The position numbers were made by a program, and so were the translations under genes. A model generated the notes under the pieces. The model worked only from the letters and a program-made list of their open reading frames with translations, had not been told where the DNA came from and searched no databases. DNA of 64,000 bases. It comes from an uncultured Acidobacteriota bacterium (GTDB taxonomy: Bacteria > Acidobacteriota > Thermoanaerobaculia > Multivoradales > UBA5704). Below, piece after piece: positions 1 through 63,956 of this stretch. Position 1 is the first letter of the stretch. Each line of letters opens with the position of its first letter. The stretch covers positions 5,184,001-5,248,000 of the forward strand of contig CAVYRF010000002.1 in assembly GCA_963770895.1 (NCBI GenBank), given 5' to 3'.

Positions 1-614
1 TTGGGCACGGAGCTGATGGCGTTGCCGGTGCTCCAACCGCCGTTGCCGTGGCCATTGCCGCCGTTGCCGCCGTTCCAACCACCGTTGCCGCCACTGCCGC
101 CGTTGCCGCCACTGCCGCTGCCGCTCTGGGTGCAGGCCTGCGAGCCCGGGAAGAGCTGGCCGGCGCCCCACGCATCCTGCTGGTCGTTGCCGTTGTCGTC
201 GCCATGGCCGTAGTCGTTCTGCGAGGTCGACGAGCCGACCACGGCATGGAGGGCGATGTAGAGGCTGGTGCCCGGCACCGCCGTACCCAGCGGGATGGTG
301 AAGGTGTAGGTGGTGACCGCGGGAGAGAGGGTTTCGCGGTAGGGGAACTGGTCGACGATCGGCGCCTGGTTCTGGGTCTGCGGGATGCCCGCCAGGGTCT
401 GGCTGACCGCGGCGTCCAGCTGGTCGATCGTGACGGTGCCGGTGGTGGCCACGGTGATGTAAAGATTGGAAATGTCGTTCGAAACCGTCACCGTCCCGTC
501 GGTGGTCGTGCCGTTGGCAACCAGGTTCACGGTCAGCGGATTGCTGGTGCACCTGCCGAAAGCCGCGGCGCAACAGGCCAGGCCAAGGACTATTGAAATT
601 AACAGTCGTTTCAT
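1..614 (-). CDS. Secreted protein with Gly/Asn-rich repeat region (runs off the window edge)
   Basis: Not in the ORF track; read manually. ATG at 614 with GGAGG upstream gives MKRLLISIVLGLACCAAAFG (signal peptide), a beta-rich domain (…FPYRETL…LYIALHAVV…DAWGAG), then GGNGGSGGNGGW repeats; open to base 1. Confidence 0.8.
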   Translation of the reverse strand, partial: MKRLLISIVLGLACCAAAFGRCTSNPLTVNLVANGTTTDGTVTVSNDISNLYITVATTGTVTIDQLDAAVSQTLAGIPQTQNQAPIVDQFPYRETLSPAVTTYTFTIPLGTAVPGTSLYIALHAVVGSSTSQNDYGHGDDNGNDQQDAWGAGQLFPGSQACTQSGSGSGGNGGSGGNGGWNGGNGGNGHGNGGWSTGNAISSVP

Positions 615-44106: not shown

Positions 44107-44857
44107 CCTTGCCGCGCAGCTCCGCGCTCTCGGCCTCTACGCCACCGCCGCCGGACTCGACGATCTCATCGCCACGGCCAGCCAACGGCGCCTCGGGCCT
44201 CGCGCTCTGCTCGAACACATCGCCACCGCCGAAGCCGCCGACCGCGCCCGCCGCTCCCTCGAACGGCGGACTGCCAGAAGCCGACTCGGCGCCTTCAAAC
44301 CCATCACCGATTTCGATTGGAGCTGGCCAAAGAAAATCGATCGCCCCCTGCTCGAACGAGCTCTTACACTCGATTTCCTCAAGGACGGCAGAAACCTCAT
44401 CGTCCTCGGACCCAACGGCGTCGGCAAGACCATGCTCATCAAAAACGTCGCCTATCAGGCTGTGCTCGCCGGCTATTCCGTGCTCTTTCGAACCGCTGCC
44501 GAACTGCTCGACGACATCGACTGCGACTCCCCAGAGCTACGACGCCGCAGAATCGCCGCCTACACCACGCCCGCCCTCGTCTGCCTCGATGAAATCGGCT
44601 ATCTCTCCTACGACGACCACGCCGCCGATCTCCTCTACAAGGTCATCAACCCCCGCTACGAAAAACGACGCTCTCTGCTCCTCACCACCAACCTCGCCTT
44701 CAAAGACTGGAACGCTGTCTTTCCCAACGCCACCTGTATCGTCACCCTCATCGATCGCCTCACCCATCACGCCGACGTCACCGCCATCGAAGCCGACAGC
44801 TACCGCCGACGCGAGAGCGAGGCCGAGGCCGCCGCCCGCCGCAAGCGCAAGCCATGA
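44093..44857 (+). CDS. istB: IS21 helper ATPase IstB
   Basis: [25 protein letters not shown]; start at 44093 or 44099. Confidence 0.95.
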
Positions 44858-45189
44858 CTCGCAACGAGTACGTCCGCTGCGTCCTGGCTCTCTTCCACAG
44901 CGCACTCCACGCCGCCCCACGCCGCAGAGCCGCCGCCGCCGACCGACGCCTCGCCGCCCAACTCTTTGATGAAGGAATTGACCTACAAACCGTCGAAGCC
45001 GCCTCGCTCCTGGCCACCGCCCGCCGTACCATCCGACCTGCCCAACTCGGGCCCCTTCCTCCGATCCGCTCCCTGGCCTACTTGCTGCCCGTCATCCGCG
45101 AGATCCAGCAACAGCCGCTCGACCCTGCCTACCTCGATTACCTACGCCGACGATTGCCGACCTCACGCTCGCTTTTCGACGGAAACTGA
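44854..45189 (+). CDS. IS21-associated hypothetical protein
   Basis: ATGA overlap with istB; lies inside the right IR; [15 protein letters not shown]. Confidence 0.7.
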
Positions 45190-45348: not shown

Positions 45349-46542
45349 ATGCGCCGTCAGAGTCTGGTTGGGGTCGTCCTCCTGATCGCCGCCCTCTGGG
45401 GACCGGCGAGAGCAGCGCATGCCGTGGAGGTGGCTGCGACCGATGCGACGCTGGAGCAGGAGTTCCTGGTCCTGTTCAAGCACTTTGAGAAGGCGGACTG
45501 GCAAGGATCAGTTTTCCATGTCGGACCGGGCGAGATGCCAAAGAGTTCAGGCCGCCCCCCGCTGGCGCTTGCCTGCAAGGGGGCTGGCGCGCGCGTTTTG
45601 GCGCTCTTCGACAGCACGTTTCACAACACGGCTGATCTGGGCGTGGTCTTCTGCGACACCGGGATCTTCTACCGCAGCCGCATCGCATCTCCCAAAGAGG
45701 GGGTGCTGCCTTACAATGACTTCAAGCGAGCGGACTTCCGCGCTCGCAGTGGAGTTTTCGTTGACATCGATCAGAACCATACTCTCGACGGCCCTCCCGC
45801 GCTGGCTCACCTTTTCGATGGCTTGAAGACTCTGATCGAGGTGCATGACGGCGCATCCGTCATCCCGCCGGGCAGCAAGCTGGTCAAGCCCTTCTGCGTC
45901 CTGCCACCCCAGACCGCCATCGTAACCAACGGATCGCCCCTGACGATCCACTGCAAAGAGATCTTCGTCTATGGAGTGGCCACCATCCGCTCGTTCGATC
46001 GGCCCGCCGGGTTTGGCCAGCAAGCAGGTGATGGCGGCCCCATCGATCTCGATGTCGAGACGATCTCAGGAGGGCGTCTGGAGATCCTCGACACGGGTCA
46101 AGAAGGCTACGTCGGAGCGGCTGGTCCAGCCGGAGCTCGGGGCGAACCGGGAGCTGCGGGCGCTGCGCGCAGCTTGGGGCGCACGGTGCTCTCCGGCTGT
46201 GCCTCCGGAGGGCAGGGAAGCCCTGGGCAACGGGGCGGGCCCGGAGGCGTTGGCGGGATGGGAGGGAAGGGCGGAGATGGCGGATCGGTGAGGATCACGA
46301 CGAACAGCGCCACCAAAAAGCTGATCGCTGCAAAGGCATCCGGAGGTGAGGGCGGAAAGGGCGGTCCAGGAGGCCGCGGCGGCCCTGGCGGTCCTGGCGG
46401 TCAGCCAGGACCTGGCGATGCCTTTTGTGGTGGGGGTCTCCCAGGTCCTATCGGCCCCAATGGAGAAAACGGTAGCGCTGGTCCTGCTGGAGGTCAAGGG
46501 AAAAACGTTCCAATCAACTGGATACTGAAGGAGAGGGGCTAG
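45349..46542 (+). CDS. Secreted protein with collagen-like G-X-X repeats
   Basis: GGAGGTG RBS; signal peptide; two Gly-triplet tracts in the C-terminal third. Confidence 0.8.
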   Translation: MRRQSLVGVVLLIAALWGPARAAHAVEVAATDATLEQEFLVLFKHFEKADWQGSVFHVGPGEMPKSSGRPPLALACKGAGARVLALFDSTFHNTADLGVVFCDTGIFYRSRIASPKEGVLPYNDFKRADFRARSGVFVDIDQNHTLDGPPALAHLFDGLKTLIEVHDGASVIPPGSKLVKPFCVLPPQTAIVTNGSPLTIHCKEIFVYGVATIRSFDRPAGFGQQAGDGGPIDLDVETISGGRLEILDTGQEGYVGAAGPAGARGEPGAAGAARSLGRTVLSGCASGGQGSPGQRGGPGGVGGMGGKGGDGGSVRITTNSATKKLIAAKASGGEGGKGGPGGRGGPGGPGGQPGPGDAFCGGGLPGPIGPNGENGSAGPAGGQGKNVPINWILKERG

Positions 46543-46543
46543 C

Positions 46544-47359
46544 ATGAGGACCCACATCCTTGCAGTGTCACTGATCATGGCAGCATGGATCGCGCCCACT
46601 CTGAACGCCGCATCCGTGTCCCCAGGGTTTTGTGAATCCGACTACCTGGATGCGTGCCGACAAGGCTATCAGCCTACAGTTTCGGAGTCGCTGAGAGATC
46701 AGAAGAGGCTTGACCACTACCGAGACTGCGTAGACCAGGAAGGGAACACCTGCCTGTTGATCGCCAGTCGCAGCTCCCGGGAGAACCTAATCAAATTGCT
46801 AATAAATTGCCGCGTGAATATCGAGCAGGTAGACGAGAAGGGTATGACCGCCCTGATGTGGGCCGTCACCAATGGCAATTTTTCAATCGCCAAGGTCCTC
46901 GTGAAAGAGGGTCACGCTGAGGTGGAAAACAGCAATGCGCGCGGCGACACGGCAATCAAGATTGCGCAACGAGAAGGATTTGTCGATATTGAGCACTTCC
47001 TGGAAGCAAATCGTGAGCGGTGGACAGATGCCGCAGGCCAGAGCATCTGGATCTTGATTGCATTGGGCTGCGCTGGTGGGTTCTTGTTGACGCTCTTTGA
47101 ATTCTTCGAAGGCAGCAATAGCTCCGCGCCGCCAGGCGGGGGCAGGCGCTTGGTCGCGTGGTTCGGGATCCCTGCGCTCGGTGGCTTCCTCGTCTATGTC
47201 TTCGTCTTGACTGGCGCCTTGCTAACGCCTCTGTTGGCACTGGGTCTCGGTATCTCCGGCCCGGCCTTGATCCGCGCTTGGCGCATGAATCCGTTGACCT
47301 ACTCGCTGGGCGACCTGTCCAAGACCCCACCGCCTCAACCTAAGCCTCCCCCTCCGTGA
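46544..47359 (+). CDS. Exported ankyrin-repeat protein with about three C-terminal TM helices
   Basis: Signal peptide; DQEGNTCL, DEKGMTALMWA, NARGDTAI; hydrophobic C-terminus. Confidence 0.85.
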   Translation: MRTHILAVSLIMAAWIAPTLNAASVSPGFCESDYLDACRQGYQPTVSESLRDQKRLDHYRDCVDQEGNTCLLIASRSSRENLIKLLINCRVNIEQVDEKGMTALMWAVTNGNFSIAKVLVKEGHAEVENSNARGDTAIKIAQREGFVDIEHFLEANRERWTDAAGQSIWILIALGCAGGFLLTLFEFFEGSNSSAPPGGGRRLVAWFGIPALGGFLVYVFVLTGALLTPLLALGLGISGPALIRAWRMNPLTYSLGDLSKTPPPQPKPPPP

Positions 47360-47548
47360 GGCTGCCGGTATGTCGGTGGCAGGGCTGGCCGAGGCGGGCG
47401 CCTCTGGCGTCCAGCCCGATCTTGGATCGTGGTGCGAACTGCCGGCGATTACTGCCCCCCTCCACACACAGCAACGGAGCGCGCAGGCCCTTGCGGACCG
47501 GAGTGTCAGGGATCAAACCTGAATGGCCGCGAGTCGCCGCGAGGCGCG

Positions 47549-47778
47549 TGTCAAGTGACGGCAATTTCTATGAGGTTAGCGATCGCGTAGTTCTACGACC
47601 CTCCTGGTTAGCTGGGCCGAAGGCCCAGGATGCGGTAGGGACCGGGGGGAAGGGTCCCGCCGCGCGCGAGCTTACGCACTTACTTGAGCATTCTTTCGAG
47701 ATCTCGCAGCCGGTAAGGCCGGCCCTTGATGTTGATGACGTGGCGGCAGTGCAGGAGCCGATCCAGCAGGGCGGTCAC
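47549..47778 (-). pseudogene. IS21 right-end remnant with istB C-terminal fragment
   Basis: 47778-47680 on the minus strand reads VTALLDRLLHCRHVINIKGRPYRLRDLERMLK*; tgtcaagtgacggc at 47549 is a plausible IS21 terminus. Confidence 0.7.
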
Positions 47779-47865
47779 CGTGGCGGTAGAGCTCAAGGTG
47801 ATGAAAGGAATCAACGCACCACAGCTCATCAATACATGCCAAGCTTGCACCGCCGCGAGCTCATA

Positions 47866-50800
47866 CTACATGCCGGCCGAGGCAGTCGCGATCGCCCGCC
47901 GCGTGATCCCAGATTGCAGCGGGCTCACAAGGTCGAGGCGCTGCAGCAAGTCCCAGCACACGAACGCCGGATCTCCCGGCAGCACGCGGCCGGTCAGGCT
48001 TGCCAGACGTTGCTCCAGCCAGGCCGCCCAGGCAGCTTCGTCTTCATGTACGGCGGCGGCGGTCACCATGATACCGACGAGGCTGGCGATCCCTTCCTCC
48101 GCACGGGTGCGCGGGGCGACGGCAAGAAGAGCGTTGGCCACGGCGTCGGCCAGGTCGAGATCGCGCTGCGCGACTGCGACCAGCGCCGCCTGCTCAAGGT
48201 CCTGCCAGCGCTTCTGGGAAGGTTCGCCGCCCTCGTCATCGGCGGCGAGGGATGCAGCCAAGCTCGCCCGTACCGCAGCGGGCAGCCGCCCGAGCCAGCC
48301 GTACAACAACGCTCCGGCCCAAGCGCCCTGGCTCGGGATCCCCGCCAGCTGCGCCAAAAGCACTTCTGGCAGCTCCTCTCTTGGGCGGAGATGCGCGGCG
48401 AGCGGGTCGGTTGGGAGCACCGGCCAGACAGCACGGTAGGCGGCTTGGATGTCATCGGCCCCTGGCACGCGTCTGCCCGCCGCTTGATGGGCCACGACGA
48501 GCCGCCATAGCCGGGAGAGAAGCTCCGCGCGCACATACGGTGCCGCAAGCAACCCAGGACGGACGAGGGGTTCCCGCCGGCGATCGATCATCTTGGCCCA
48601 CCTGCCCACCAGCCAAAACCCGGTCTGTACGAATTCGGTAAGCGCGCCGAGATCGACTGCGCCTTGCGGCAGCATTGGGGCCATCAAAGCCGCCTCCATC
48701 CAGGCGCACATGCGCCGCCAGAACGGCGGGCGGAGGGCGCTGCCCCCAACCAGCATGAGCTTATCCAGCATGAGCTCGACGAGCAGCGCAAAGACGGCGT
48801 AGAAGTCGCCACCACAAGGGAGCGGAAATGTATCTGAGACGAGTGCCGGCAGCGCCCGATTCAGCAGCGCCGCGAAGCGGGGGTCGTGCTGGCGATGCAG
48901 GGCCACGTCCACCGCGGCCAGGAGCGAAATCGGCTCGGCCTCGGGATGGCTGGCTTCGAGAGCGTTCCACACCTCGTCGTCGTTGTACGGCGCGAGCCAG
49001 AGCCCGGGCAGGAGCTCGTCGCGTAAGGCGCCGCGAAGGCAGGTGCGGAGACCCTGCACCAAATCGCGGCGCAACAGGTCCTGCCGGTGCGCGGGCAGAG
49101 TGACCGTGAGATACGTTTCGGGATCGGCCGTGCCCGGGTCCGGGCCGTAATATCGCTCCATCAAGAGGAACGAGGGGGGAGGCAACTCGTCCAGCGGGAT
49201 CTGCCGATCGGCGAGCGCTGCGCCCACCTGGTGTTCGTGCGGCACGAGCGCGTTCTCGAGAGCACTCAAGAGTTGATGGATCTCTTCGACGGTCAATTCT
49301 CGGAGATCGGCAGCCGCACGCAGTGCGGCCAGCTCTGGCGGCGCCATGCCACCGAACCGCGCGAGCACCTGGTCCAGAGCGTGCAAGCGCGCCGCGCGGT
49401 CCACCGCGAACAGATTCGTGTCAAAGAGCTGAAGGACGATCCGGTTCGGCTCGCCCTCCCCCTGGGGTAGATCGATCGCAGGGACCTCGTCGTGGAAGAC
49501 CAAGCGGGCGGCCCTGCCGTCTGCGGTCGTGAGCGCCTGAGGCTCCCGAGTCACCAGGAGGCGCCGCGTAGCCTCGAAAAGGGGCTCGGGGTGGAACGCG
49601 ACGAGGCCTCGCAGAACGACCACCTCCTCGGAGCGCAAGCCGAGCTCGGGCCGGAAAACGAAGTTCGCACGGAGCCAGTCGCAGACGGTCTGCGGTTGAC
49701 TGTTGAAGAGATGGCGTGCGAAAAGCGCGGCATGCTCCATCGGCTCGGAGGTCCATCGCTCGATCAGCTCGCCTGCCTGGCGGCCGAGGGCCTCGACCAT
49801 TCCAGGATACTGGGCGAGGCGCGGCCGCAGCACATATGCCTCCACCCACTCGCGGTAGGCCGCCAGGCGGCCTTCGCCCATGGGAGGCAGCGGCTGGAGG
49901 AGCCCCCAGGTGTGCCGCACGAGCGCCTCGGTGGCATGCTCCGCGGTCGGTCGCGCATCGCTCAGGCCCTCATGGGGCGAGGGTGCGACATGGTGCCAGA
50001 TCCAGTCGGAGACCTGGGCCGCGCGTTCGGACGGCAGGTCTGCCCTTTGCCAGAGCTCGCGGATCGCCAGAACGCTCGTCGGGTAGAGCGCTTCACCGAG
50101 GCCCCGTCTGGCGCTCTCGTGAAGCGGCGGGATCGCGCGCACCCTTGCCAGGGACTGACGAAGCGTGCGCAGTTCGGCGCTCTCGACGAGATCGCCCGCT
50201 TCCGGCCAGCGTGCGCGTGATCCCAGGGCGACCAGCTCGTCAGGCGCCAGGGGCACGAAGCAAAAGCCCGCCTCGCGCAGCCGGTGATGGATCGTCTCTT
50301 GCTCGGCGGCCGTCAGCACGCCCTGGTCGACCAGGAACTGCACCAAATCGAGAACGCAGAGGACCGGCACCGTGCGGCCCTGCTTGTCGGTAAGGCCGCG
50401 GTACCGGTTGATGGCCCGATCGTCGATGCAGATCGCGTCACAGATGCCGGTGTCCGCATCAAACTGCAGGAGTGTCGGTGGCGCGGCACCCGGCAGCTGC
50501 TGGCCGTCGATCGAGTCGCGGCGCGGCAGGAGCCGGATCTTGCCGGCCTCGATACCCGACCGGAGCGCGCCGCGGATCTGGTCGAGGGTCGCGGCAAGCA
50601 GGTCGCCATGGCGCGCGCTGTCAAGCATCCGGTTGGTGTCGGCGCGCAGCGACGGATGCACCCTGAGGTCGAGACCGGCCGCGATCATCGGCTCCAGGAG
50701 CTGGGCGTGCTGGAGATAGGTCACGGCGAGATCGTCGAGGTACAAAGGACGATCTAGCAGCGAGCCGTCGCGCGGCACAGCCCCCGGGCGGTCCTGGGTC

Positions 50801-53800
50801 AGCAGATAACGCTGAGCCTGCTCGTGCTGAGCGGCGTCGAGGTAGCCACGCTCGTAGAGCGCGAGTTCCAGATCGACCGTCGACCAGATGCGCTGCTCGT
50901 CGGCGCCGAGCACCGCGAGCTCCTCCATCAGGCTCGCCGGCCGGTAGATCGGCAGCGGCCGGACGACGCTGCCGCCGCTCGTGCGGGCGGCCAGGAGAAG
51001 CTGCGCGAGATCGCCGCCCACCTCGGCGGCGAGCTCGCGGAGGTCACCGGATGCTGGCTCGGCGTCGCGAAGCTGCTGCCGGTCCAGCATCTCCCGCAGC
51101 CTCTCGGCCGCGCGCACCAGCGCGGGCTGCTGGTGACGGACCTGATTGCGGTCGTTGAGGATGACGAGCAGCGTGTCGGCCGCGACACAGACCTTGGGCA
51201 GCGCGGCGAGGACTCTGTCCAAAAGCTCCAGGTAGGCGAGGACAAAGATCGACGTGATATCGAGGCCCACGACCCAGTCCGGCGGCAAAACCTGGGGCTG
51301 GCTGTGCTCCGAGAGGATCGGAACGAGGGTTCGCTGGCGTCCGTCCTGGGACTGGCGGTTCGCACGCGGTATGCCGATAAGGAGATGGGACAGCGGGACA
51401 TGCAGCTCGATTGCGGCCTGATGAAGCGGTAGTTCACCGCGCAGCCAACCTTCCTCCACCCTGCGCCGGTGTTCGCGTTGCGCCGGCATCATCTGCGTAA
51501 CGACAGTCCGCAGGTCCAGCGCGCGCGCCGGGCCGTCCTCGGCCGACAGCGCCAGCGCCTGCCGCGGCCATGAAGCCGTCTCCCGATCGTCGTCGCGGCC
51601 CAGCTTGAAACGCAGCCAGATCGCCGATACCAGGAGGTGCGCATCGCCTTCGTTGCGCTCCACCGCGAGCTTCGCCAGGTCCCAGGCCCGCTCGGCGGCC
51701 ACATCGACCTGGGCGGCAATCGAAGCCAGTCGCATGAGGGTGGCGGGAGTGTGCCCATCGCGTCGCGGCCACTCCCGGTCAACGATCGCTGAGAAGCGCT
51801 CCCATTGCCCTCCGGCGAGGGCCAGGTTGATGTCGAGGTCGAGATCGAGGTCGTCGACCCGCTCCGCCATCAGCTGGCGATTGAGGTCGTTGGCCTCGCC
51901 GAGACGGCCGGCCCGAAAGAGCGCCCAGGCCCTGGCCGACTGGAGCTCTGGCGCCTGCTCGACGAGATCGGGATTCGCGTCCAGGAACGCCAGGATCTCG
52001 TCCGGTGCGGCGTCCCCGGAGCGTTCCATGCAGACAACCAGCTCCAAAGCGTTGCGCCGGTTCGGCAGCCGCCGGACGAGCTCGGCGACGAGTGGGTGGA
52101 GAGCAGCCCAGTCCCTGGCTTTCCTCAGATAGCGGATCAGGTTCTCGAGATCGATCAGATCTCCTGTCCGAGCGAAGTTGGCCTCGAGGCCCGGGCGCAG
52201 GTCCTCCTCACCCTCATGCTGCAGGATGCGGAGCTCGATACGCCGGATGTCGTCCTCGTCGAAGATCCCTTGCGATGCCTGGAGCTCTGCCTTGGCCCGA
52301 GCCAACTGGCCGTCTCCGAGGAGGACCTCGATGCGTGCCCCGGCCAGGCGGTCGGGCGCCAGCACATCCTGCAGGCTGGTCGCTTCCCGATCGAGATAGG
52401 CGAGCTGGTCACCAGGCGAAAGGGCCTGCTCGTTGATGAGGAATTCGGCGACGCGCTCCTCACGCGACAGCCCTCCCAGATGCGACCGGCGCTCGAGGTA
52501 TCGCATCGCTTTGGCGGCATCGAACGGGATGTCGCGGGCGCGCGCCAGCGGCAGCAGCCGGACCATGCTCTCGCCTTCGCTGCTCATGCTCCGCTCCAGG
52601 TCCTGCCGCGCTGCAGCGACCACCTCGGGATCCGGGTGGGTCAGGAGAAGCCACCTCGACCAGATGCCGGCCTCCAGGGCGAGGGGAGGGAACAGATCTC
52701 GCCACAACACCTGGGTGCGCTCGAAACAAAAGCTGGCCTCGGCCCGATGCCGATCGGCCCCACCCCCTTCGAGTGTGCGCAGGCCGTGCAGGTACACGAT
52801 CCCACCGAGCACCTCGCGGCGCAGCTCTGGGGACACCAGGAAGGCCACTCGCACCCGCCCCTCGATGTTCGGCAGCTCCGGGTAGTCGTCCCAAAGGTGG
52901 CGAACCCGCTCCAGGGAGGCTAAAGCATCCTCCCAACGGCCCTCTTGGGCGAGGGCCACGGCAAGCTGACGCCAACCGAATCCAGTGAGGAACTCAGGCC
53001 GCTCGCCGCCGGGCAGGGAGGCAAATCGAGCGAGGGCCTCTTCCCGACCATGGACGCGGTAGAGGACGGCAAACAGGTTGGCTCGCGCATCGGGGTCGTC
53101 GAGGTCGCGCAATGCGTGGAGCGCACCTTGGGGATCTCCACCAGCCTCAAGCAGGAGAGCGGCGAGGATGGGAGTGCCGGGCGGCAGGGCGTACCGCGCC
53201 AAGCGAGCACGGAAAGACTGCGCTTGCTCGAAGGTCGCGGCGTTGGCGTGAAACCGGGCGGCCCAATACAGGATCTCCGCCTGCTTCGCCGCGTCCGCGT
53301 GTCGGAGATCGCCAGCGGTGGCGCGGTCGACAAGGCGCACGATGTCGGAGCAGCCCTCCTCGAGGGTCGTCACGCCTCGGCGCCGCAGGATGAGGTTCAG
53401 CTCGCGGGCGGCGCGGGCCGAGTGGTCCTCTTGGATCACGCGGTCCGGCGCCGGATCGATGGGGAACAGATCCTCGATCTCCTCAGGGGAGAGCTCCTCC
53501 CGCAGCAGGCCCCAGAACGAGTCGATGCCGAGGACTCTGAAGGTGACCGCGGGGTGGCTGGCCTTGAGGCCGGCAACCGCGCTGGCGGCGAGCTTGCCGA
53601 TTGCGTCCTCGGGGTAGTTGTGGACGAACGACCAGCAGCGAAGGTTGCCCTCAAGGGTCGAGTAGGCGGTTGTGAAGTTGTCTCGCAGCTTGGTTACCAG
53701 GATGCTGTCGGTTTGCTCAGTGATCCTGGCGGGTGCATAGATCTGGTACACCTCACCGGTGTTGATGACCAACCCATCGAGGCCACCGTCGCCGCTCGTC

Positions 53801-53946
53801 TTGCGGATACGCTGGAAGTCGCCACTTTTATGGAGTGCGCCCACCAGCCGTTCGATCAACGACTGGAACTCCTCGTGGAACAAGGATCGGAACTGATCGC
53901 GAAATCGGAGACGCTGGAGATCGAGGCGTGTCATGTCAACCGGCAT
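47866..53946 (-). CDS. Giant protein with N-terminal PD-(D/E)xK-like nuclease, TPR array and PIN-like domain; candidate defence protein
   Basis: 2026 aa. N-terminus GDGGLDG…YQIYAP…WSFVHN; TPR-like middle; PIN-like motifs VGLDITS, YLDDLA and CIDDRA. Confidence 0.65.
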   Translation of the reverse strand: MPVDMTRLDLQRLRFRDQFRSLFHEEFQSLIERLVGALHKSGDFQRIRKTSGDGGLDGLVINTGEVYQIYAPARITEQTDSILVTKLRDNFTTAYSTLEGNLRCWSFVHNYPEDAIGKLAASAVAGLKASHPAVTFRVLGIDSFWGLLREELSPEEIEDLFPIDPAPDRVIQEDHSARAARELNLILRRRGVTTLEEGCSDIVRLVDRATAGDLRHADAAKQAEILYWAARFHANAATFEQAQSFRARLARYALPPGTPILAALLLEAGGDPQGALHALRDLDDPDARANLFAVLYRVHGREEALARFASLPGGERPEFLTGFGWRQLAVALAQEGRWEDALASLERVRHLWDDYPELPNIEGRVRVAFLVSPELRREVLGGIVYLHGLRTLEGGGADRHRAEASFCFERTQVLWRDLFPPLALEAGIWSRWLLLTHPDPEVVAAARQDLERSMSSEGESMVRLLPLARARDIPFDAAKAMRYLERRSHLGGLSREERVAEFLINEQALSPGDQLAYLDREATSLQDVLAPDRLAGARIEVLLGDGQLARAKAELQASQGIFDEDDIRRIELRILQHEGEEDLRPGLEANFARTGDLIDLENLIRYLRKARDWAALHPLVAELVRRLPNRRNALELVVCMERSGDAAPDEILAFLDANPDLVEQAPELQSARAWALFRAGRLGEANDLNRQLMAERVDDLDLDLDINLALAGGQWERFSAIVDREWPRRDGHTPATLMRLASIAAQVDVAAERAWDLAKLAVERNEGDAHLLVSAIWLRFKLGRDDDRETASWPRQALALSAEDGPARALDLRTVVTQMMPAQREHRRRVEEGWLRGELPLHQAAIELHVPLSHLLIGIPRANRQSQDGRQRTLVPILSEHSQPQVLPPDWVVGLDITSIFVLAYLELLDRVLAALPKVCVAADTLLVILNDRNQVRHQQPALVRAAERLREMLDRQQLRDAEPASGDLRELAAEVGGDLAQLLLAARTSGGSVVRPLPIYRPASLMEELAVLGADEQRIWSTVDLELALYERGYLDAAQHEQAQRYLLTQDRPGAVPRDGSLLDRPLYLDDLAVTYLQHAQLLEPMIAAGLDLRVHPSLRADTNRMLDSARHGDLLAATLDQIRGALRSGIEAGKIRLLPRRDSIDGQQLPGAAPPTLLQFDADTGICDAICIDDRAINRYRGLTDKQGRTVPVLCVLDLVQFLVDQGVLTAAEQETIHHRLREAGFCFVPLAPDELVALGSRARWPEAGDLVESAELRTLRQSLARVRAIPPLHESARRGLGEALYPTSVLAIRELWQRADLPSERAAQVSDWIWHHVAPSPHEGLSDARPTAEHATEALVRHTWGLLQPLPPMGEGRLAAYREWVEAYVLRPRLAQYPGMVEALGRQAGELIERWTSEPMEHAALFARHLFNSQPQTVCDWLRANFVFRPELGLRSEEVVVLRGLVAFHPEPLFEATRRLLVTREPQALTTADGRAARLVFHDEVPAIDLPQGEGEPNRIVLQLFDTNLFAVDRAARLHALDQVLARFGGMAPPELAALRAAADLRELTVEEIHQLLSALENALVPHEHQVGAALADRQIPLDELPPPSFLLMERYYGPDPGTADPETYLTVTLPAHRQDLLRRDLVQGLRTCLRGALRDELLPGLWLAPYNDDEVWNALEASHPEAEPISLLAAVDVALHRQHDPRFAALLNRALPALVSDTFPLPCGGDFYAVFALLVELMLDKLMLVGGSALRPPFWRRMCAWMEAALMAPMLPQGAVDLGALTEFVQTGFWLVGRWAKMIDRRREPLVRPGLLAAPYVRAELLSRLWRLVVAHQAAGRRVPGADDIQAAYRAVWPVLPTDPLAAHLRPREELPEVLLAQLAGIPSQGAWAGALLYGWLGRLPAAVRASLAASLAADDEGGEPSQKRWQDLEQAALVAVAQRDLDLADAVANALLAVAPRTRAEEGIASLVGIMVTAAAVHEDEAAWAAWLEQRLASLTGRVLPGDPAFVCWDLLQRLDLVSPLQSGITRRAIATASAGM

Positions 53947-54043
53947 GGTGGGATTGCACTACCATCGTAGCGTGGGGAATCCAGACCCGGCTCCTGGTAC
54001 CAGTCCAACATGGACCACCACTGAGGGGCGGGGCGGTGTCGGG

Positions 54044-57000
54044 TCAGTGATCGAAACCGGTCCGCCGCCTCTCGGCTCCTTGGTCCACGATGCGGGCATC
54101 GCGCTCATAGGAATTCGCGAGGGAGTGGAGGATGGCAGCGGTTCGCGGCGAGCGGTCGAGAAAGAGCACGGCTTGTGCACGAAACGTAGCGGCGAGGGTC
54201 CGCTCCTGATCTCCCCCGTCGAACATGCCTCGGCTGGTGACACCGCGGCTGTTCAGGACGGCCGTTTTGAAGCCACTCTCCACGTCGCGACTTTGGAGCG
54301 TCTCGAGGAGATCGCGAACCTCCACGCAGGGCCACGCGCCGTCGGGGTCTGCAGGACAGCTGGCGAGCACCTGGCCGATGTGGATGTCGCCGACAGCGAG
54401 CCTCTGGAGGCGCTGCAAGTCGCGGCGACTCGCGGTAACCCAATCGACAAGAACCTGGCTGTCGAGAGCCCCGTCGTCTCGCTGACCTGGAAGGACACGC
54501 CACTTGGAGAGGAGCCGATAGGCGTTCCGGGCTAGGGCCTGCTGCTTCTCGGTTGGCTTGGCAGGCTCCAGTTCCTCGGGTGGCTCGCCTGTTCCCGAGG
54601 CCTCCTCGCGCTGGGGACGGTAAACGGTGGCCACGACTTCGACAAAAAAGCTTGGGTTTGCAGCGAGGTAGCGGCCCAGAGTCGATGTATTGGCATTGCG
54701 GCCGAGCGCTGACAGGTACGACCATTCAAGCTCGGCAAGCCGGTCTCTGGGAAACGTCGATGTCTCGAGGTAGTCGAAGAGCTGAGCGATTTCGTAGTGC
54801 GAGATAGCTTGGGCCTCGGGATCAGCTGGCGTCCGATCCAGCAACGCCGCAAGGCCTGCCGCTACGCTCTCGGCCGAGGTGAAGTCGGTGTTGTGGCGTA
54901 AGTAGAGGCTGATGATGTGCAGCGCTGACCCGGGTCGTCCTGCAGCGAGGAGCCTCGGCACGACGACGTCCAGATGGGCGAAATTGGAGCCGAGTCCAAA
55001 GATTTGAAAATGCTGCCAGAAGACACCTTCAACCTCGGCGCCCAGGCTCTCAGCGGCTTCCCAGGCGGCAGGGAAGTCATGGGTTGCTAATAACAGACGG
55101 CCTGATTGCTCGGGCGAGAGGCTACCTCCGTGCAAGAAGCTGTCGACCCAGGGCCAACCCTCGGTGCGGAAGCGCTCGTAGAGGTAGCTTGGGGCGAAGG
55201 TGGAACCCAGCGGATTGTCGGAGCCGAGTAGGGCGAGAAGCTGCGGGTCGTATCTGGTGACTTCGGCATGGGCGATTGCCCAGCCGAATATGGAAGGTTG
55301 GTGCCGATGTGATGCGAAAGTGTGGAGCTGTGGCCAGTCCGCTGCCGCAGCGATTTCCCGAACGGCCGCGATCCGCAATGTCTTGATCGCCGCGTCGTAG
55401 GCTTCCACGCCGTCGGCGTGGCGAACGTTGGGAATCTTCGGCATGGCCTGATCGAACAACCACGCAAATCGGTCGAACACCGCAATAGGCTCAAGACGCT
55501 GGACGATTCTCTCGAACTGAGAAACCTCATCCGAAGAGAGCGCCCAACTGCTGTCTGTGAACTCGCGGTGGCGAGCGACGATCGTCCGGAGCACTTCCCA
55601 AATTTGCTTCCTGCTCTCGGCGGCGAAATTCTCTTGGTCGGCCAGCGCGAGAAGCCGTGTCTTAATCTCTGCTCGCGTCTGGAAAGGAAGATTGGCGAGC
55701 TCTTCGATCAATGCGATCCATCGCTGCGGATCCGAGCCCACGTGCTCCATGAGGCGCACGCACGCCGCCTCGACTACTTGGGAGCGCTCGCTATCGGTGG
55801 GCTGGATCTGTTCTGGTTTCCAGGGGCGGAAGCGCGGAGCATAGGTGAGGTCGGCGAAATGGCCGCCACCGCAGCTGATCGCGAGCAGCAGCGGCCAGGC
55901 CACACTCTCGTGCCGCTGGCAAAGCGCATCGAGCGCTGCGATACGCCGATCCACGGTAACACTGTTCTGCGGATACCACGGGCGAAAGATGGCAATGAGA
56001 CTGGCCTGCGGCCGATTGAGGAGCTTGCCGCCGGGATCAATCTTAGCCAGACGGGCAAGTACGTCAACGGCTTGGCCGAAATCGACGGGCGACCAGGCGC
56101 AGACTTCGAGTGCCCAGAGGAGACCCGTGTGGGGAGAAGATGTCTGGTCCCGATCGGAGAACATGGCTTCCAGGACGGGCGGATCGCCGGTGAGGCCGGT
56201 AATGGCGGCCTCCAGGAGAACCGACGGCGCAGCCTCGGCGAGCAAGGGTAGAACGTCATGCAGGGATGCCCAGATCCGGCAGGTCGGATCCTGGTTCGCC
56301 GCCTCGAGGATTCGCCACACCGTATCCGCTGCCCAATCCCCGGCGGTTTGTGTCGTCCCGCTTATCGTGAGGCCGACCGAGTCTCCGAGCAGCGCCAATG
56401 TTACTGCAAATCCGTGCCGGAGCTCACCCGAATAGGGCGGAGTTTTACCGTAGACCTGCGCCAGCCATCGCTCGGCAGCGGGAAGGTCGAGCGCTGGGTC
56501 ACAGGCGCCGAAAACTCTGGCGGCGCTGGCCTGGAACACCTTGAGATCCTCGTTACGTAGGTCGCCTTTGAGCAGCCGCCAAGCATCGAAGGGGGAGACG
56601 AGGCCGACTGCTGGACCGAACCGTGCGAGGAGCGGGTCGCCCGGCGCTAGGAGAGCCCCTAAGCTCTCGGTAAGGGCGTCGTAGGTGTCCAGTCCGGTGA
56701 GGTCGGAAAGGACCGCCCGATCTTCGGTAGAGCTGTCAAGCCATCGGCCGGCGAGTAGAACCCGGCGAACCAGTCCGGGGACGGGGGGGCGGGCCCACTC
56801 CGGACGATACAGCTCCGGGTGGCTGGCGATGGAGCGCCGGGCCGCCTGCAGGTTGAGACGGGCCAGGGCAGCGACTTCGCCAGCGCGACCTTCTTCCAAG
56901 CCTGCGGCGATAAGCGCGTCCTGGGCTTTCTGCGCAGCGATCGGCGGTAGTTTGATCGTGAAAGGCCCGGAGTCGAGAGGCACCAGAAGATGGTGCTGCG

Positions 57001-57847
57001 AAGAAGAGCTGAGGTCGTCAGCGACCTCTTGGGTGGTCGGCACGAGGACGAGCGGGGCTGCGTGATCCCGCCATCGTCGCCACGCCGTGACGTCGTCGAG
57101 GAACGCGATCCTCGCGAGCAGCTGGCCGCGATCGACTCTTGACTTGCGGACACCCAGCGCGCTGATGAACGATAGGACATCGTCGCGGCTCGCTCCCTGT
57201 ATCGTGGTGATCTGGCCGGGCTTCGCGAGGCGCTCCTCGATTTCCTCCACTGCCTCATTGCGGCCGGCGAGAAGGGCGTCGGGCGGGAAGGCAGGAGAGG
57301 TTGCTTCGGACCACCGAGCCCACCAGGTTTCTGCCGGGACGAGGCCATGAGGGGACAGGCCAAGGAGCTCCGAGAGCCATACGTGGGTCACGGGCGCTGC
57401 CTCAAGCCATGTTTCGATGTCGTCGAGGCCGAAGGCGCGAACGGCCCGCCACCGACCTTCGGCTTCTTTTTCTCTGGCCCACGCGGCGCGGTCCTTCCAT
57501 CGCCGAAGGAGAGCTGCAACGTAGGTGCAGTCGCCTGTCGGTGTCCCGTCCGGGGTGGAGAGGCGCTTTGCATAGTCGAGGTCGGCTTTGCGCTTGACCG
57601 CCTTCTGCGTCGAAACCTCCCATAGGGAAAGGCCCGCCGGAATGAAGGCGGTGGCTTCGTTAGTCCGCACAGTGCCGTCCCAGCCTGCGTCGCCGACGCC
57701 CTCGCCAGCTGGAAAGCCCAAGCGCACTAAACCGCGCCCTGTTTCCAAAATCAGGCGACGGAGCAGCCTGGGGAAATCACCCCGCGCGGCGAGCGAGTCC
57801 GCCCACCGCAAGAGATCTGTCTGGTCGGCCAAGCCGAGTCTAGCCAT
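54044..57847 (-). CDS. Large protein with restriction-endonuclease-like N-terminus, possible degenerate NTPase region and helical repeats; candidate defence protein
   Basis: 1267 aa; GWDG…WEVS…KADLDYAKR; no canonical Walker A motif (IQGASRDD). Confidence 0.55.
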   Translation of the reverse strand: MARLGLADQTDLLRWADSLAARGDFPRLLRRLILETGRGLVRLGFPAGEGVGDAGWDGTVRTNEATAFIPAGLSLWEVSTQKAVKRKADLDYAKRLSTPDGTPTGDCTYVAALLRRWKDRAAWAREKEAEGRWRAVRAFGLDDIETWLEAAPVTHVWLSELLGLSPHGLVPAETWWARWSEATSPAFPPDALLAGRNEAVEEIEERLAKPGQITTIQGASRDDVLSFISALGVRKSRVDRGQLLARIAFLDDVTAWRRWRDHAAPLVLVPTTQEVADDLSSSSQHHLLVPLDSGPFTIKLPPIAAQKAQDALIAAGLEEGRAGEVAALARLNLQAARRSIASHPELYRPEWARPPVPGLVRRVLLAGRWLDSSTEDRAVLSDLTGLDTYDALTESLGALLAPGDPLLARFGPAVGLVSPFDAWRLLKGDLRNEDLKVFQASAARVFGACDPALDLPAAERWLAQVYGKTPPYSGELRHGFAVTLALLGDSVGLTISGTTQTAGDWAADTVWRILEAANQDPTCRIWASLHDVLPLLAEAAPSVLLEAAITGLTGDPPVLEAMFSDRDQTSSPHTGLLWALEVCAWSPVDFGQAVDVLARLAKIDPGGKLLNRPQASLIAIFRPWYPQNSVTVDRRIAALDALCQRHESVAWPLLLAISCGGGHFADLTYAPRFRPWKPEQIQPTDSERSQVVEAACVRLMEHVGSDPQRWIALIEELANLPFQTRAEIKTRLLALADQENFAAESRKQIWEVLRTIVARHREFTDSSWALSSDEVSQFERIVQRLEPIAVFDRFAWLFDQAMPKIPNVRHADGVEAYDAAIKTLRIAAVREIAAAADWPQLHTFASHRHQPSIFGWAIAHAEVTRYDPQLLALLGSDNPLGSTFAPSYLYERFRTEGWPWVDSFLHGGSLSPEQSGRLLLATHDFPAAWEAAESLGAEVEGVFWQHFQIFGLGSNFAHLDVVVPRLLAAGRPGSALHIISLYLRHNTDFTSAESVAAGLAALLDRTPADPEAQAISHYEIAQLFDYLETSTFPRDRLAELEWSYLSALGRNANTSTLGRYLAANPSFFVEVVATVYRPQREEASGTGEPPEELEPAKPTEKQQALARNAYRLLSKWRVLPGQRDDGALDSQVLVDWVTASRRDLQRLQRLAVGDIHIGQVLASCPADPDGAWPCVEVRDLLETLQSRDVESGFKTAVLNSRGVTSRGMFDGGDQERTLAATFRAQAVLFLDRSPRTAAILHSLANSYERDARIVDQGAERRRTGFDH

Positions 57848-58928: not shown

Positions 58929-60100
58929 CTAGTGTAGTGCGTCACACAGATGGGACCTTATTCAGTCTGAGACGTGCTCTCTTGACCTTTTCGAGGATGT
59001 CAGCAGCCTTAGCCGTCCAGATGTAGGGTTTAGGATCAGAGTTGTGCCGCTCGATCGCCCCCAGAATCGCGGATTCGAGCTGGTCGACACTGCGGAACAC
59101 TCCACGGGAAATTTGCTTCTCGGTCAGGTGTCGGAAGAAGCGTTCGACCATGTTGAGCCAGGAGGCACTGGTCGGAGTGAAATGAAGGTGAAATCGCGGA
59201 TGCCGAGCGATCCAGCGTAGAACGACCGCGTGCTTGTGGGTGCCATAGTTGTCGGCGATCAGGTGGATTTGCTTGGCTGCGGGTGTCTCCCGATCGATTT
59301 GTTTGAGGAACTTCAACCACTCCTGGTGGCGGTGCCTCGGCATGCAGCTACCGATGACTTTACCGTCCAGCGTACTCAAGGCCGCGAATAACGTCGTGGT
59401 GCCATTGCGCTTGTAGTCGTGCGTCATCGTGCCGCAGCGGCCCTTCTTCATCGGCAGGCCGGGTTGAGTCCGATCAAGAGCCTGGATCTGGCTCTTCTCA
59501 TCGGCACACAAGACGAGGGCGTGCTCTGGCGGGTTGAGATAGAGCGCGATGACATCTTCCATTTTCTCGACAAAGCGTCGATCGTTGCTCAGCTTGAAGG
59601 TCCGCACCCGATGAGGCTTGAGGCCGTGCCGCTGCCAGACCCGGCGCACCGTCGAGGCGCTGACCCCGACCGCCTCGGCCATGCTCCGCGTGCTCCAATG
59701 AGTGCCGTCCTGCGGCGTCTCTTGCGTTGTCTTGCGCACGATCTTCCGTAGCAAGCCCTGGGACAGGCTCGGCAGGCGCCCACTTCGATGCGCGTCTTTC
59801 TCGATCCCGCTCAGGCCGAACTGGCAAAAGCGGCTCCGCCAACGTCCGACGGTATGCCGCATGATGCCAAGACTTTCGGCAATTTCCCGATTCTCCTTGC
59901 CCTCGGCGGCCAGCAAGACGATCTTCGCGCGCTGCACCAGACGCGTCGGCGTGCTGCGGCCTCGGGCATAGGCCTCCAACTGCCGCCTTTCCTCCGGCGA
60001 AACCAGAACCAACGGTGCGATCCGCATCGTCCCAATCCTCCCACAGGACGATACGTACGAACCGCATATAAGGATTCCTAATTAGGGCGCACTACACTAG
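58929..60100 (-). mobile_element. IS630-family insertion sequence
   Basis: Inverted ends ctagtgtagtgcg / cgcactacactag; insertion at CTAG (TA target). Coordinates include both CTAG copies. Confidence 0.93.
58942..60027 (-). CDS. IS630-family transposase
   Basis: [40 protein letters not shown]. Confidence 0.96.
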
Positions 60101-60178: not shown

Positions 60179-61531
60179 TCACTCAAACTTCAATCGTTCA
60201 AGGCTATCAATGAAAGCATCCTTGGACTGGAAGTCATCGATATGGAGTAATAAATGAAGCATGAACTCCCAGGCTGCCTGCATAAAGCGGCCAACTGTCT
60301 CTAGGTCTGTCGCCGGCCTCCCATGGTGCACGAATGTTGAGCGTAGATCGTAGCCGGCCCGCATGAGACGCACCAGTTCTTGCCGCTCGTCAGCCGTTCG
60401 TCGAATAGCGAACGCGACACGCTCTGCAATGTTGCCACCTATTGGCTCACTTTGGTTCCGAAGGAGCATGGATTCCAAGCCTACCGTGACAAACAGCAGC
60501 TTCTCGGATGGGTCTCTCGTTATTGAATTGCGGGAATATGTCAGCAGGGCCGCCCGGACGGCCTCTTGAAACTGCGTGAGCGACTCAGCGGCCAAAAGAC
60601 GACTTAGGCGAGCGAACATTGGTTCCTCCGCCGCGATGACTTCGTTGGGCATAATCAACTGCGTCGGAGGAGGTGGCAACATTTTGCCGTTGCGCCCTGC
60701 GAATGTTCCGCCGGCATAGACGTAAGCATCGTAGCTGTCGATGTGCTCTGTCCCTAGAGGGCCACAGTAAAGGGCCATGTGTGGAGACGAGTTCGCCGGA
60801 TGAACAATGCGGAGTAGGGCGACCGCGTCTTCAGCTAGATCGAAGCACTCATCTACCGCAGAGTCCCGCTCTGCTTCGGTTTCAAGAACAACAGCCGTGA
60901 GCCCTTGCAGCTTTTGGCGCCGCGCGTTAAGAACTCGCCTAGTGTCTTCAAGGCGTTCAGGAGGTGAGTGTGCCAAGAAGGGCTCAAACCAGCTGTCTAA
61001 GATTTCTCTTGTAATAACCCGGAAAGTCACGGGGCCAAAATCTACATCAGCTTCCATTAGCAAGTTAGCGATGGGAATCCAGATGCTATGTACCGCAACT
61101 TTCTTTTTGCCTTGCTCGATGAGAAATCTGCTCAATTCGCCGTCGCCCCCCTTTGAGCGCACTTCAAGCCAGCCGACCACTAACGACTGAATAGTTGCGC
61201 GCGAAAGACCCCTGAGGTGCTTCCTAATCAATGCGGTAGCGCCTGAAAATGCTGCGTAGTCTGGGCCCACAATGCCAACCGGGCCGGAGGCGCCCTCGAA
61301 CACGATACTCGTCGGCTGGTTTGAGTAGAAGTCAATGTTCTGCATCCTGACCGTGCCAATGACGTTGGCTTCGGTGATGGTGTCTGTTGGCACCCGGTCA
61401 GGGTGAAACTGATACGGCCTTTCTGGCGGCTCCTTAAATGGTTTTATGAGAGTGATAAGGTGCGCGCCATGAGTATCAATGCTTGCCGCCGCACCGGGGT
61501 GTAGGCTTAGATGCGGCATAGAGAGTACCAA
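60179..61531 (-). CDS. Apea-like HEPN domain protein (putative RNase effector)
   Basis: C-terminal GLESML…IAERVA…YDLRSTFVHHG (RxxxxH); low GC; start may be the ATG of MPHLSL. Confidence 0.8.
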   Translation of the reverse strand: MVLSMPHLSLHPGAAASIDTHGAHLITLIKPFKEPPERPYQFHPDRVPTDTITEANVIGTVRMQNIDFYSNQPTSIVFEGASGPVGIVGPDYAAFSGATALIRKHLRGLSRATIQSLVVGWLEVRSKGGDGELSRFLIEQGKKKVAVHSIWIPIANLLMEADVDFGPVTFRVITREILDSWFEPFLAHSPPERLEDTRRVLNARRQKLQGLTAVVLETEAERDSAVDECFDLAEDAVALLRIVHPANSSPHMALYCGPLGTEHIDSYDAYVYAGGTFAGRNGKMLPPPPTQLIMPNEVIAAEEPMFARLSRLLAAESLTQFQEAVRAALLTYSRNSITRDPSEKLLFVTVGLESMLLRNQSEPIGGNIAERVAFAIRRTADERQELVRLMRAGYDLRSTFVHHGRPATDLETVGRFMQAAWEFMLHLLLHIDDFQSKDAFIDSLERLKFE

Positions 61532-61537
61532 GAGTGG

Positions 61538-61933
61538 TTAGGGAGGTGAGACATAAATAGTTCTCCTTGACGATGGCGTGCAAATGCTACCACAAGAAAA
61601 GTTCATCCCTGCTCGATTCCGTTTCGCACTCGATTGAGGCCAGCCTGTAGCTGATGCCGGCGTCCACTCATAACTGTGAGCCGTTGTGCCGGCTACAGAG
61701 CAAATCTCTCCGCAATCTCTGTTTTGGCAGTGCAGAAGGCAAGCAAAGAACTTTGTAATCCATTCGGGGTCCCAGTCTCTTTCTCCGTGGCTCTCGCGCG
61801 AGTCACGCGTCTCTGCCGTCGCGAGGCTGTCCGGCTGGATGGACAGGGAATGGCGTCCACATCGCGGACAGGGCCACGGAGGGAAGCCCTCCTCGTCATA
61901 CAGTCCAATCCAAAGTATTTCTTCAATGGGCAT
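61538..61933 (-). pseudogene. Zn-ribbon N-terminus of a DUF4145-like protein, apparently truncated
   Basis: WPCPRCG…WDPEW…HCQNRDCGE; no HEPN-like C-terminal domain follows in frame. Confidence 0.5.
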
Positions 61934-63931: not shown

Positions 63932-63956
63932 AGATTGTGAGGAGCAACGACTCACC

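Follow-up and report, generated by a model that had tools for sequence, protein, structure and literature searches.

Two adjacent giant proteins with nuclease-like heads in an acidobacterial island: an Avs-like family without a P-loop and a relative of the TGP proteins

We analyzed a stretch of 64,000 nucleotides (hereafter the window) from an uncultured Acidobacteriota bacterium (assembly GCA_963770895.1, contig CAVYRF010000002.1, positions 5,184,001 to 5,248,000), in which two very large open reading frames (ORFs), ORF1 and ORF2, adjoin on the minus strand. The reading that we favor, with somewhat better than even confidence, is that they are two independent single-gene immune proteins standing side by side in a mobile defense island. 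More tentatively, and with a little less than even confidence, we propose a joint account of what the two proteins are. ORF1 would belong to a large unannotated family of STAND-derived nucleases that has discarded its P-loop while keeping an invariant nuclease site, implying receptor activation and oligomerization without nucleotide exchange. ORF2 would be a form of the TGP (TPR-GreA/B-C-PIN) type that lacks the GreA/B-C domain, carries a double PIN region, arose by fusion of a two-gene system of ~1440 aa plus ~640 aa, and joins RNase domains to a DNase head. For both genes, we infer function from fold, conservation, and genomic context. Their positions in the window are as follows:

54044..57847, minus strand: ORF1 (P0001), 1267 aa, ATG start (ORF call and translation)
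53947..54043, minus strand: spacer between ORF1 and ORF2, 97 bp
47866..53946, minus strand: ORF2 (P0002), 2026 aa, ATG start (ORF call and translation)

Both are considered real genes, since the spurious ORFs overlapping them are much smaller and full-length homologues are numerous for each. The true start of ORF2 is uncertain by four codons (window position 53934 vs 53946), because the identical public protein comprises 2022 aa and begins at the second in-frame ATG (M5). A first-pass annotation, made from the sequence alone, had described two co-oriented genes 97 bp apart, each headed by nuclease-like motifs and neither with a canonical Walker A. The ORF list, with both genes on the minus strand, bears out this arrangement, and the motif strings are present in the translations (GWDG at residues 55-58, WEVS at 76-79, and K87 in ORF1; GDGGLDG at 52-58 and YQIYAP at 67-72 in ORF2). 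Neither protein is matched by the Walker A regular expression [AG]x4GK[ST] or by looser forms of it.

The same annotation had also proposed a tandem pair, acting together or as two single-gene systems, and the co-occurrence data favor the second option. Among 401 sampled genomes from the phylum, 18 contain ORF1-like and seven contain ORF2-like sequences. Both are present only in G000, the genome in which ORF1 and ORF2 adjoin, and in G196, where a broken piece of ORF1 and an ORF2-like gene lie ~500 kb apart. Among 41 close relatives, seven have an ORF1-like and four an ORF2-like sequence, and again two genomes hold both: G000, which is counted in both samples, and G407, whose ORF1 and ORF2 relatives are on different contigs, with the partner gene present neither downstream of the former nor upstream of the latter. 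A tblastn search with ORF1 in 47 loci holding ORF2 relatives gave no match; the 47 included 10 metagenome loci whose upstream sequence spans 4.6 kb or more and five genome loci flanked by 6 kb or more on each side. When the neighbors in 14 ORF1 loci, 20 ORF2 loci, and the window were compared, no neighbor family recurred across loci, except for one that comes from three loci of one genus. Outside G000, the homologues are thus never adjacent (0 of 47 loci; 2/401 and 2/41 genomes, G000 included), and we rejected a conserved pair on this co-occurrence pattern.

ORF1 is Avs-like in build, its nuclease head being followed by a degenerate STAND module and then by a C-terminal region of ~800 aa:

57353..57847, minus strand: ORF1 head, residues 1-165, with a PD-(D/E)xK fold (model pLDDT 94.2 and VIA)
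56498..57349, minus strand: ORF1 residues 167-450, STAND/AAA+-type nucleotide-binding domain (NBD), helical domain (HD), and winged-helix domain (WHD) (Foldseek and VIA)
54047..56497, minus strand: ORF1 C-terminal region, residues 451-1267, conserved, with no Pfam match

The family behind this architecture is large. A word-indexed protein search, in which 8000 candidates were scored, retrieved at least 244 homologues of ORF1 at E<=0.001. Among the 120 listed, most are 1250-1280 aa long and align over 99-100% of the query, with identities from 73% down to 35%; all are hypothetical or nameless, and the source names in the family include Chloroflexi, Acidimicrobiia, Microbacterium, and Agromyces. 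The ESM Atlas likewise holds many ORF1-like clusters of ~1250-1370 aa, some of them with HTH_3. Searched as a whole, ORF1 has no match in Pfam, NCBIfam, or PADLOC (0 PADLOC families at E<=1), and sequence searches of the PDB with single proteins and with family profiles gave nothing usable. Since none of these three collections has a model for it, pipelines for finding defense systems miss this family of at least 244 proteins. The first-pass annotation had proposed a candidate undescribed anti-phage system; ORF1 matches no model in these collections, and its fold is Avs-like.

Pfam domains are present in 8 of the 120 listed homologues. In a 30-sequence alignment, seven sequences have an N-terminal extension of 88-337 residues before residue 1 of ORF1, and four of the seven carry DNA-binding Pfam domains (JGI names for two of these four are CopG/RHH and XRE-family HTH). 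PF13772/PF06094 (AIG2/GGACT) is found in the relatives P0039, P0045, and P0047; in P0039 and P0045, it lies within the 158-167 residues that follow the ORF1-homologous end, and this extension may be a second effector.

We modeled residues 1-460 of ORF1 from an 88-row alignment (mean pLDDT 94.2, pTM 0.90). A VIA comparison of residues 1-164 returned eight PD-(D/E)xK nucleases at Z 8.1-9.4, with AF1548 at the top (Z 9.4, rmsd 2.5, 112 residues aligned), and the R.BspD6I small subunit (9.2), N.BspD6I (8.9), FokI (8.7), MspJI (8.5), LlaBIII (8.4), and Can2 (8.2) among the others. D57, G58, E77, K87, A88, D91, and R95 are invariant in all 88 aligned sequences. A search for the head in other architectures found 93 shorter proteins, all 42-80% identical and none with a Pfam domain; since these look like fragments of the same family, there is no evidence that the ORF1 head is exchanged.

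Downstream of the head, a Foldseek search of the PDB with residues 1-460 placed Avs3 first (8dgc_B, E 5e-6), together with Avs4 (8dgf_A, E 1.6e-5), and the Dark apoptosome, RFC, ORC, and p97 next. In VIA, residues 167-450 matched ClpC1 (Z 8.0-8.5), CED-4 (8.0), the wheat resistosome (7.6), and EfAvs5 (7.3). Residues 5..446 of the model could be laid on 1..502 of Avs4 (Z 7.2, rmsd 10.2, 348 aligned), and an SmtB-like winged helix was recognized over residues 340-433. The model thus gives ORF1 the STAND NBD-HD-WHD arrangement at the level of fold, with middling Z scores. What supports these fold assignments is the agreement among many nuclease and AAA+/STAND rows, no single match being outstanding.

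What the STAND-like module lacks is the P-loop. The corresponding position in ORF1 (residues 213-223) reads ITTIQGASRDD, and none of the 88 aligned sequences has GK[ST] or a lysine in the P-loop columns. These columns instead show S220 in 82/88, an acidic residue at position 222 in 84/88, and an acidic residue at position 223 in 88/88. A Walker-B-like stretch (IAFLDDVTAW in ORF1) is mostly retained, with D251 in 60 and D252 in 59 of the 88. The Walker A regular expression does occur in 4 of the 120 relatives, at scattered, non-equivalent places that we regard as chance matches. As judged from the alignment, the nucleoside triphosphate (NTP) site is degenerate throughout the ORF1 family. The remaining C-terminal region contains a strongly conserved motif (N1199, R1201, G1202, G1211, G1212, Q1214, E1215, and Y1222), and residues 451-1267 are presumed to be the sensor.

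The order of domains in ORF1, a PD-(D/E)xK nuclease followed by STAND NBD-HD-WHD and a long C-terminal region, is that of Avs3 and Avs4 (8dgc, 8dgf). No sequence similarity between these proteins and ORF1 is detectable, either in PADLOC (none at E<=1) or in the PDB profile search, and ORF1 and all 88 aligned relatives differ from Avs in having no Walker A lysine. Avs activation, as described for Avs7 in PMC13581612, involves ADP release and ATP binding. That 2026 survey reports many Avs families sensing core phage proteins, and a preprint (10.64898/2026.08.25.746987) gives at least 90 Avs families. The ORF1 family, without a match in PADLOC, Pfam, or NCBIfam, may be one of these.

Immune STAND modules without working Walker motifs have precedents. 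In KpAvs8, degenerate motifs were taken as a loss of ATPase activity (legend to Extended Data Fig. 11 of PMC13581612, which also equates Avs8 with PD-lambda-4), and inactive modules named iSTAND and iSTAND2 are described in ternary MoxR-vWA systems (PMC8195603; PMC7159879). The latter are the third components of those systems as presented there, whereas ORF1 is a single nuclease-headed protein. What distinguishes ORF1 from Avs8/PD-lambda-4 is its non-match in PADLOC, which includes a PD-lambda-4 model.

ORF2 has a different build, with the following parts:

53452..53946, minus strand: ORF2 head, residues 1-165, PD-(D/E)xK fold of the Lamassu LmuA effector type (model pLDDT 93.8)
51547..53439, minus strand: TPR array, residues 170-800 (hhalign to TGP proteins and weak Pfam TPR matches)
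51310..51495, minus strand: HTH_upst_double_PIN (PF24407), residues 818-879 (Pfam)
50227..51264, minus strand: tandem PIN-like region, residues 895-1240 (PF20698)
47869..49737, minus strand: C-terminal module, residues 1404-2026 (delimited by split ORFs in relatives)

The head of ORF2 recurs in other proteins. A full HMMER scan with residues 1-170 against 1.84 billion representatives yielded 229 proteins at E<=0.001, including 47 at E<=1e-30; in these it is almost always N-terminal, the host proteins being ~200 to ~2000 aa long. Domain shares were determined for 65 sequences, the 64 shortest of 150 listed plus the ORF2 head, and so apply to short proteins only. Among them, 35/65 carry Pfam CTD10 of ABC-3C systems, which we take, from the occurrence of the term in Lamassu papers, to be the same system as Lamassu; AAA_16, NACHT, nSTAND, or TPR domains are found in a few. 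PADLOC assigned 36/65 to PDC-M68A and 18/65 to LmuA; scanned by itself, the ORF2 head hits LmuA with E 1.6e-4. The head is thus homologous to the N-terminal domain of short CTD10 proteins. Unlike Lamassu LmuA, ORF2 has no CTD10 or CTD11 in Pfam, and PADLOC detected no LmuB- or LmuC-like gene among the 10 neighboring ORFs scanned.

Structurally, the modeled ORF2 head resembles the R.BspD6I small subunit (2p14; Foldseek probability 1.00, TM 0.58). VIA gave Z scores of 10.1 for this subunit and for FokI, 9.5 for AF1548, 8.9 for Can2, 8.2 for the N-terminal nuclease of Avs4, and 7.5 for MspJI. D53, D57, and K86 are invariant among the 65 head-family sequences, at least 90% of which have an aspartate at position 90; ORF2 itself has N90, with D89 adjacent.

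The claim that both N-termini are nuclease-like is therefore borne out by VIA and Foldseek on the models, with PD-(D/E)xK folds in each. The supposedly different motif sets turn out to be two versions of this one fold, with the layout D...[E/Q]...K-x3-D. The same solved nucleases top the fold searches of both heads, and the order of secondary-structure elements is the same: an aspartate precedes strand 2, strand 3 bears a glutamate or glutamine, and the helix after it carries K-x3-D. Structurally, each head is matched best by cleavage domains of the FokI/R.BspD6I/MspJI type, at a sequence identity of 8-14%; in contrast to these enzymes, the conserved lysine of both heads lies on the helix after strand 3 and not in the strand. 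Between the two head families, the sequence similarity is not significant: hhalign, which aligns GDxGxDG and KxxxD[YF], gave P 0.015 and a probability of 3%.

The ORF2 family is rarer than that of ORF1, with 14 homologous proteins in the protein search and 41 metagenome loci. In the family alignment, the core is constant from residue 168 to the end and the N-terminus varies. The heads of relatives include TIR/SEFIR, DUF676/alpha-beta hydrolase, HNH_2, PNP_UDP_1, Mrr_cat, and SMEK_N (Pfam); four other N-termini and the head of the whole protein P0136 have no Pfam match. Since recognized TIR, HNH, PNP, and Mrr enzymes occupy this position in relatives, we regard it as an effector slot.

Within the constant core, PF24407 matches ORF2 at E 1.7e-12 (47.9 bits, cut-off 27), which was confirmed on the sub-region. 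PF20698 (PIN-TPR-GreABC) matches residues 880-1260 at 31.3 bits (cut-off 27.8) in stretches that start at 895 and 1069; from these two stretches, the profile suggests a tandem PIN. PF20698 is above cut-off inside the ORF2 relatives of three genomes (G148, G139, and G196), and D896, E975, D1175, D1176, and D1200 in the PIN region are invariant in the family. ORF2 contains no NTPase. Of the alternatives in the first-pass annotation, sensor-nucleases with either a degenerate NTPase or none, ORF1 exemplifies the former, with its STAND-type fold and GK[ST] in 0/88, and ORF2 the latter; the long helical repeats that it had described are found in ORF2, as TPRs with weak Pfam matches and a profile match to the TGP array.

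The C-terminal module has neither a Pfam match nor a usable match in the ESM Atlas. In at least 12 loci (L040, L041, L048, L050, L053, L055, L057, L060, L062, L063, L067, and L068), the family is encoded by two overlapping genes of ~1420-1540 aa and 630-650 aa, the second corresponding to residues 1404-2026; the split form also occurs in G404 and G412. ORF2 is the fused form, so that the real pair lies inside it. A further relative, a 2471-aa protein in G148 (L039, G148:C1, 6540-13955, plus strand), has a strong canonical PF20698 PIN (69 bits) ahead of its segment alignable to ORF2 852-2023, and looks like a TGP-like protein fused to the HTH/PIN/C-terminal half of the ORF2 family.

As described by Kaur et al (2021; PMC8195603), the TGP conflict system has a constant TPR-GreA/B-C-PIN core, mostly encoded as a standalone gene, and its N-terminal EAD10 can be replaced by a restriction endonuclease, HNH, PNPase, TIR, SIR2, or peptidase domain. 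In the model proposed there, the protein docks on RNA polymerase and its PIN cleaves transcripts, with the N-terminal effector in reserve (PMC8195603). The experimentally tested example is Bab/Agp of E. coli ECOR25; according to a preprint (10.1101/2024.11.07.622273), Agp is the TGP protein, and combined with Bab it defends E. coli from phage T5. ORF2 shares with TGP proteins a constant core behind an exchangeable N-terminal effector, a collinear TPR array, a PF20698-type PIN after an HTH-like segment, and a mostly standalone gene. Compared with five canonical PF20698 proteins of 1161-1296 aa from the same phylum sample, the ORF2 family scored an hhalign probability of 89.8% (E 1.8e-6, 478 columns), with ORF2 259-785 collinear with TGP 256-767 in the TPR alignment.

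After the TPR array, an invariant G-K-x-V-G (G821, K822, V824, G825) is common to the five TGP proteins; we take it to be the signature of GreA/B-C. At the sequence level, ORF2 has neither a Pfam match to this domain nor a counterpart of GKxVG, which leaves room for a divergent or relocated domain; the TPR alignment ends at residue 785 and the HTH starts at 818, a distance of only ~33 residues. ORF2 further departs from TGP proteins in its duplicated PIN, followed by ~780 more residues, the last ~620 of which are a separable gene product, and a search with ORF2 missed the canonical TGP proteins that the searched genomes encode. Given the shared grammar, TPR array, and type of PIN on the one hand, and the duplicated PIN, the large extra C-terminus, and the GreA/B-C domain not found on the other, we place ORF2 as a sister of TGP proteins. 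In kind, it is not undescribed, the class being known from computational work: Pfam holds models for PF24407 and PF20698, and its grammar is that of the TGP system as set out in PMC8195603.

The context of the homologues was examined by running PADLOC on the ORFs within 5 kb (106 ORFs in 14 loci for ORF1; 120 ORFs in 18 loci for ORF2). Neighbors of ORF1 relatives match MADS (mad2 in three ORFs, mad8 in two, and mad3), BrxC and BrxF of BREX, AbiEi, AbiEii, PD-T7-3, and type I, II, and IIG restriction. Those of ORF2 relatives match type I restriction-modification (RM) subunits, PbeA, DrmD of DISARM, mad2, and mad8. Both families are patchily distributed, ORF1-like sequences being present in two of nine congeners.

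Four other explanations were weighed. One two-component system, co-transcribed and acting together, for instance with one protein sensing and both cutting, would fit the co-orientation across a 97-bp gap without a terminator-like site (a simple and uninformative scan found neither terminator-like nor promoter-like sites there) and the unusual PD-(D/E)xK head layout common to both proteins. We consider it very improbable, given the 47 loci of ORF2 relatives without an ORF1 relative, the 16 of 17 other ORF1-like genomes and five of six other ORF2-like genomes in the 401-genome sample without a match to the partner, the separate contigs and partnerless flanks in G407, the sole congener with both, and the marginal sequence likeness of the heads. 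Somewhat easier to entertain, albeit unlikely, is that one or both heads are catalytically dead and act in DNA binding or sensing, which would leave the PIN region as the true effector of ORF2. In both heads, the third strand contains no lysine (Q68-I-Y70 in ORF2, E77-V-S79 in ORF1), and the asparagine at position 90 of ORF2 departs from its family. Against this stands the invariant lysine on the following helix (K87 in 88/88 for ORF1, K86 in the 65 sequences for ORF2), which together with the invariant acidic residues of both families speaks for a catalytic site that has moved but is intact, as well as the recognized enzymes in the head position of the ORF2 family.

Two further alternatives concern ORF1. 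Its STAND-like module might bind nucleotide through a non-canonical pocket and work as a normal NTP switch: the Walker-B-like hhhhDD(V)xxW is kept in most sequences, and S220 could contact a phosphate. The absence of GK[ST] or a lysine at the P-loop columns makes this distinctly unlikely, as do the acidic residues at 222-223, unfavorable for phosphate binding, and the reading of degenerate motifs as ATPase loss given for KpAvs8 in PMC13581612. That ORF1 is instead a housekeeping enzyme or a DNA-processing enzyme of a mobile element is something to which we give little credence. No PADLOC defense model matches it, and some relatives have N-terminal HTH domains, as in regulators; yet its distribution is patchy (18/401 genomes), it lies in a low-GC island alongside a retron, the neighbors of its homologues match BREX, MADS, AbiE, and RM models, and its architecture parallels that of Avs3/Avs4.

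Several points weigh against our preferred account of two independent immune proteins. The loci surveyed for partners exclude the closest homologues, P0003 (73% identity), P0004 (69%), and P0124 (58%), and co-transcription of ORF1 and ORF2 is possible, since the scan finds no terminator in the gap. The ORF2 head could be inactive because of N90 and of Y70, where classic enzymes have a lysine. VIA Z scores of 7-10 are middling by the tool's own scale, and the structure models cover ORF1 1-460 and the ORF2 head, so that "sensor" and "double PIN" derive from sequence profiles. PF20698 scores 26.6 bits on the whole of ORF2, under the cut-off of 27.8, and a genome-wide search with it gave no match in G000. 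The HTH/PIN part of ORF2 aligns with the C-terminal part of TGP proteins at an hhalign probability of 14%, with the starts of HTH and PIN paired. Finally, the counts of defense neighbors come without a control set or the number of contributing loci.

If ORF1 and ORF2 are indeed independent immune proteins, each might work as follows. In ORF1, the ~800-aa C-terminal region would bind a phage component, releasing autoinhibition; the STAND-like module would then drive oligomerization without the usual ADP/ATP exchange, and the clustered heads would cut DNA, so that the infection is aborted. In ORF2, the constant TPR/HTH/C-terminal core may sense infection, with the PIN domains cleaving RNA and the exchangeable head, here a putative DNase, acting as a suicide effector. 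Should ORF1 protect against phage, it would provide a clean natural test of the need for nucleotide binding in STAND-type immune receptors, so far addressed only through isolated cases such as KpAvs8. The ORF2 family extends the TGP class, in which Bab/Agp is the sole tested member; the absence of the proposed RNA-polymerase-docking domain bears on how TGP-class proteins sense infection, and the split and fused forms mark where the protein can be cut.

In the window, ORF1 and ORF2 lie in a region of lowered GC content, 0.54-0.69 from ~36 kb to the window end compared with 0.72-0.78 before; across the 18 kb past the window end, GC is still 0.59-0.69. The first-pass annotation had called it a retron/HEPN island. 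The retron part holds: a reverse transcriptase at 62192-63955 on the minus strand matches PADLOC RT-Toprim_I-C (E 9e-231), that is, a type I-C retron enzyme fused to Toprim. A HEPN domain could not be verified, none being found by Pfam in the 18 neighboring ORFs scanned. The retron stretch has the lowest GC in the window (0.54), and two minus-strand ORFs downstream of the reverse transcriptase (61538-61933, 131 aa; 60179-61531, 450 aa) have no Pfam or PADLOC match. Only short, chance-like repeats were found in 36-64 kb, and no tRNA genes in the window or the next 18 kb. Three transposase genes bracket ORF1 and ORF2:

38858-40027, minus strand: transposase, DDE_Tnp_1 with DUF4372 (Pfam)
42601-44106, plus strand: transposase, rve with Mu-transposase C (Pfam), together with 44103-44969, plus strand
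58942-60027, minus strand: transposase, DDE_3 with HTH (Pfam)

The island thus looks like a mosaic built by IS elements. An ORF of 384 aa at 47356-48510 on the plus strand, which runs antisense across the 3' end of ORF2 and has no Pfam match, is probably spurious in this high-GC DNA. Convergent to ORF2 lie two abutting plus-strand ORFs (46544-47359 and 45349-46542), the former of which encodes ankyrin repeats and matches the PADLOC candidate PDC-M72A (E 9e-12); the latter, of 397 aa, has only a weak BnzA match (E 3e-4). This pair may be another defense candidate.

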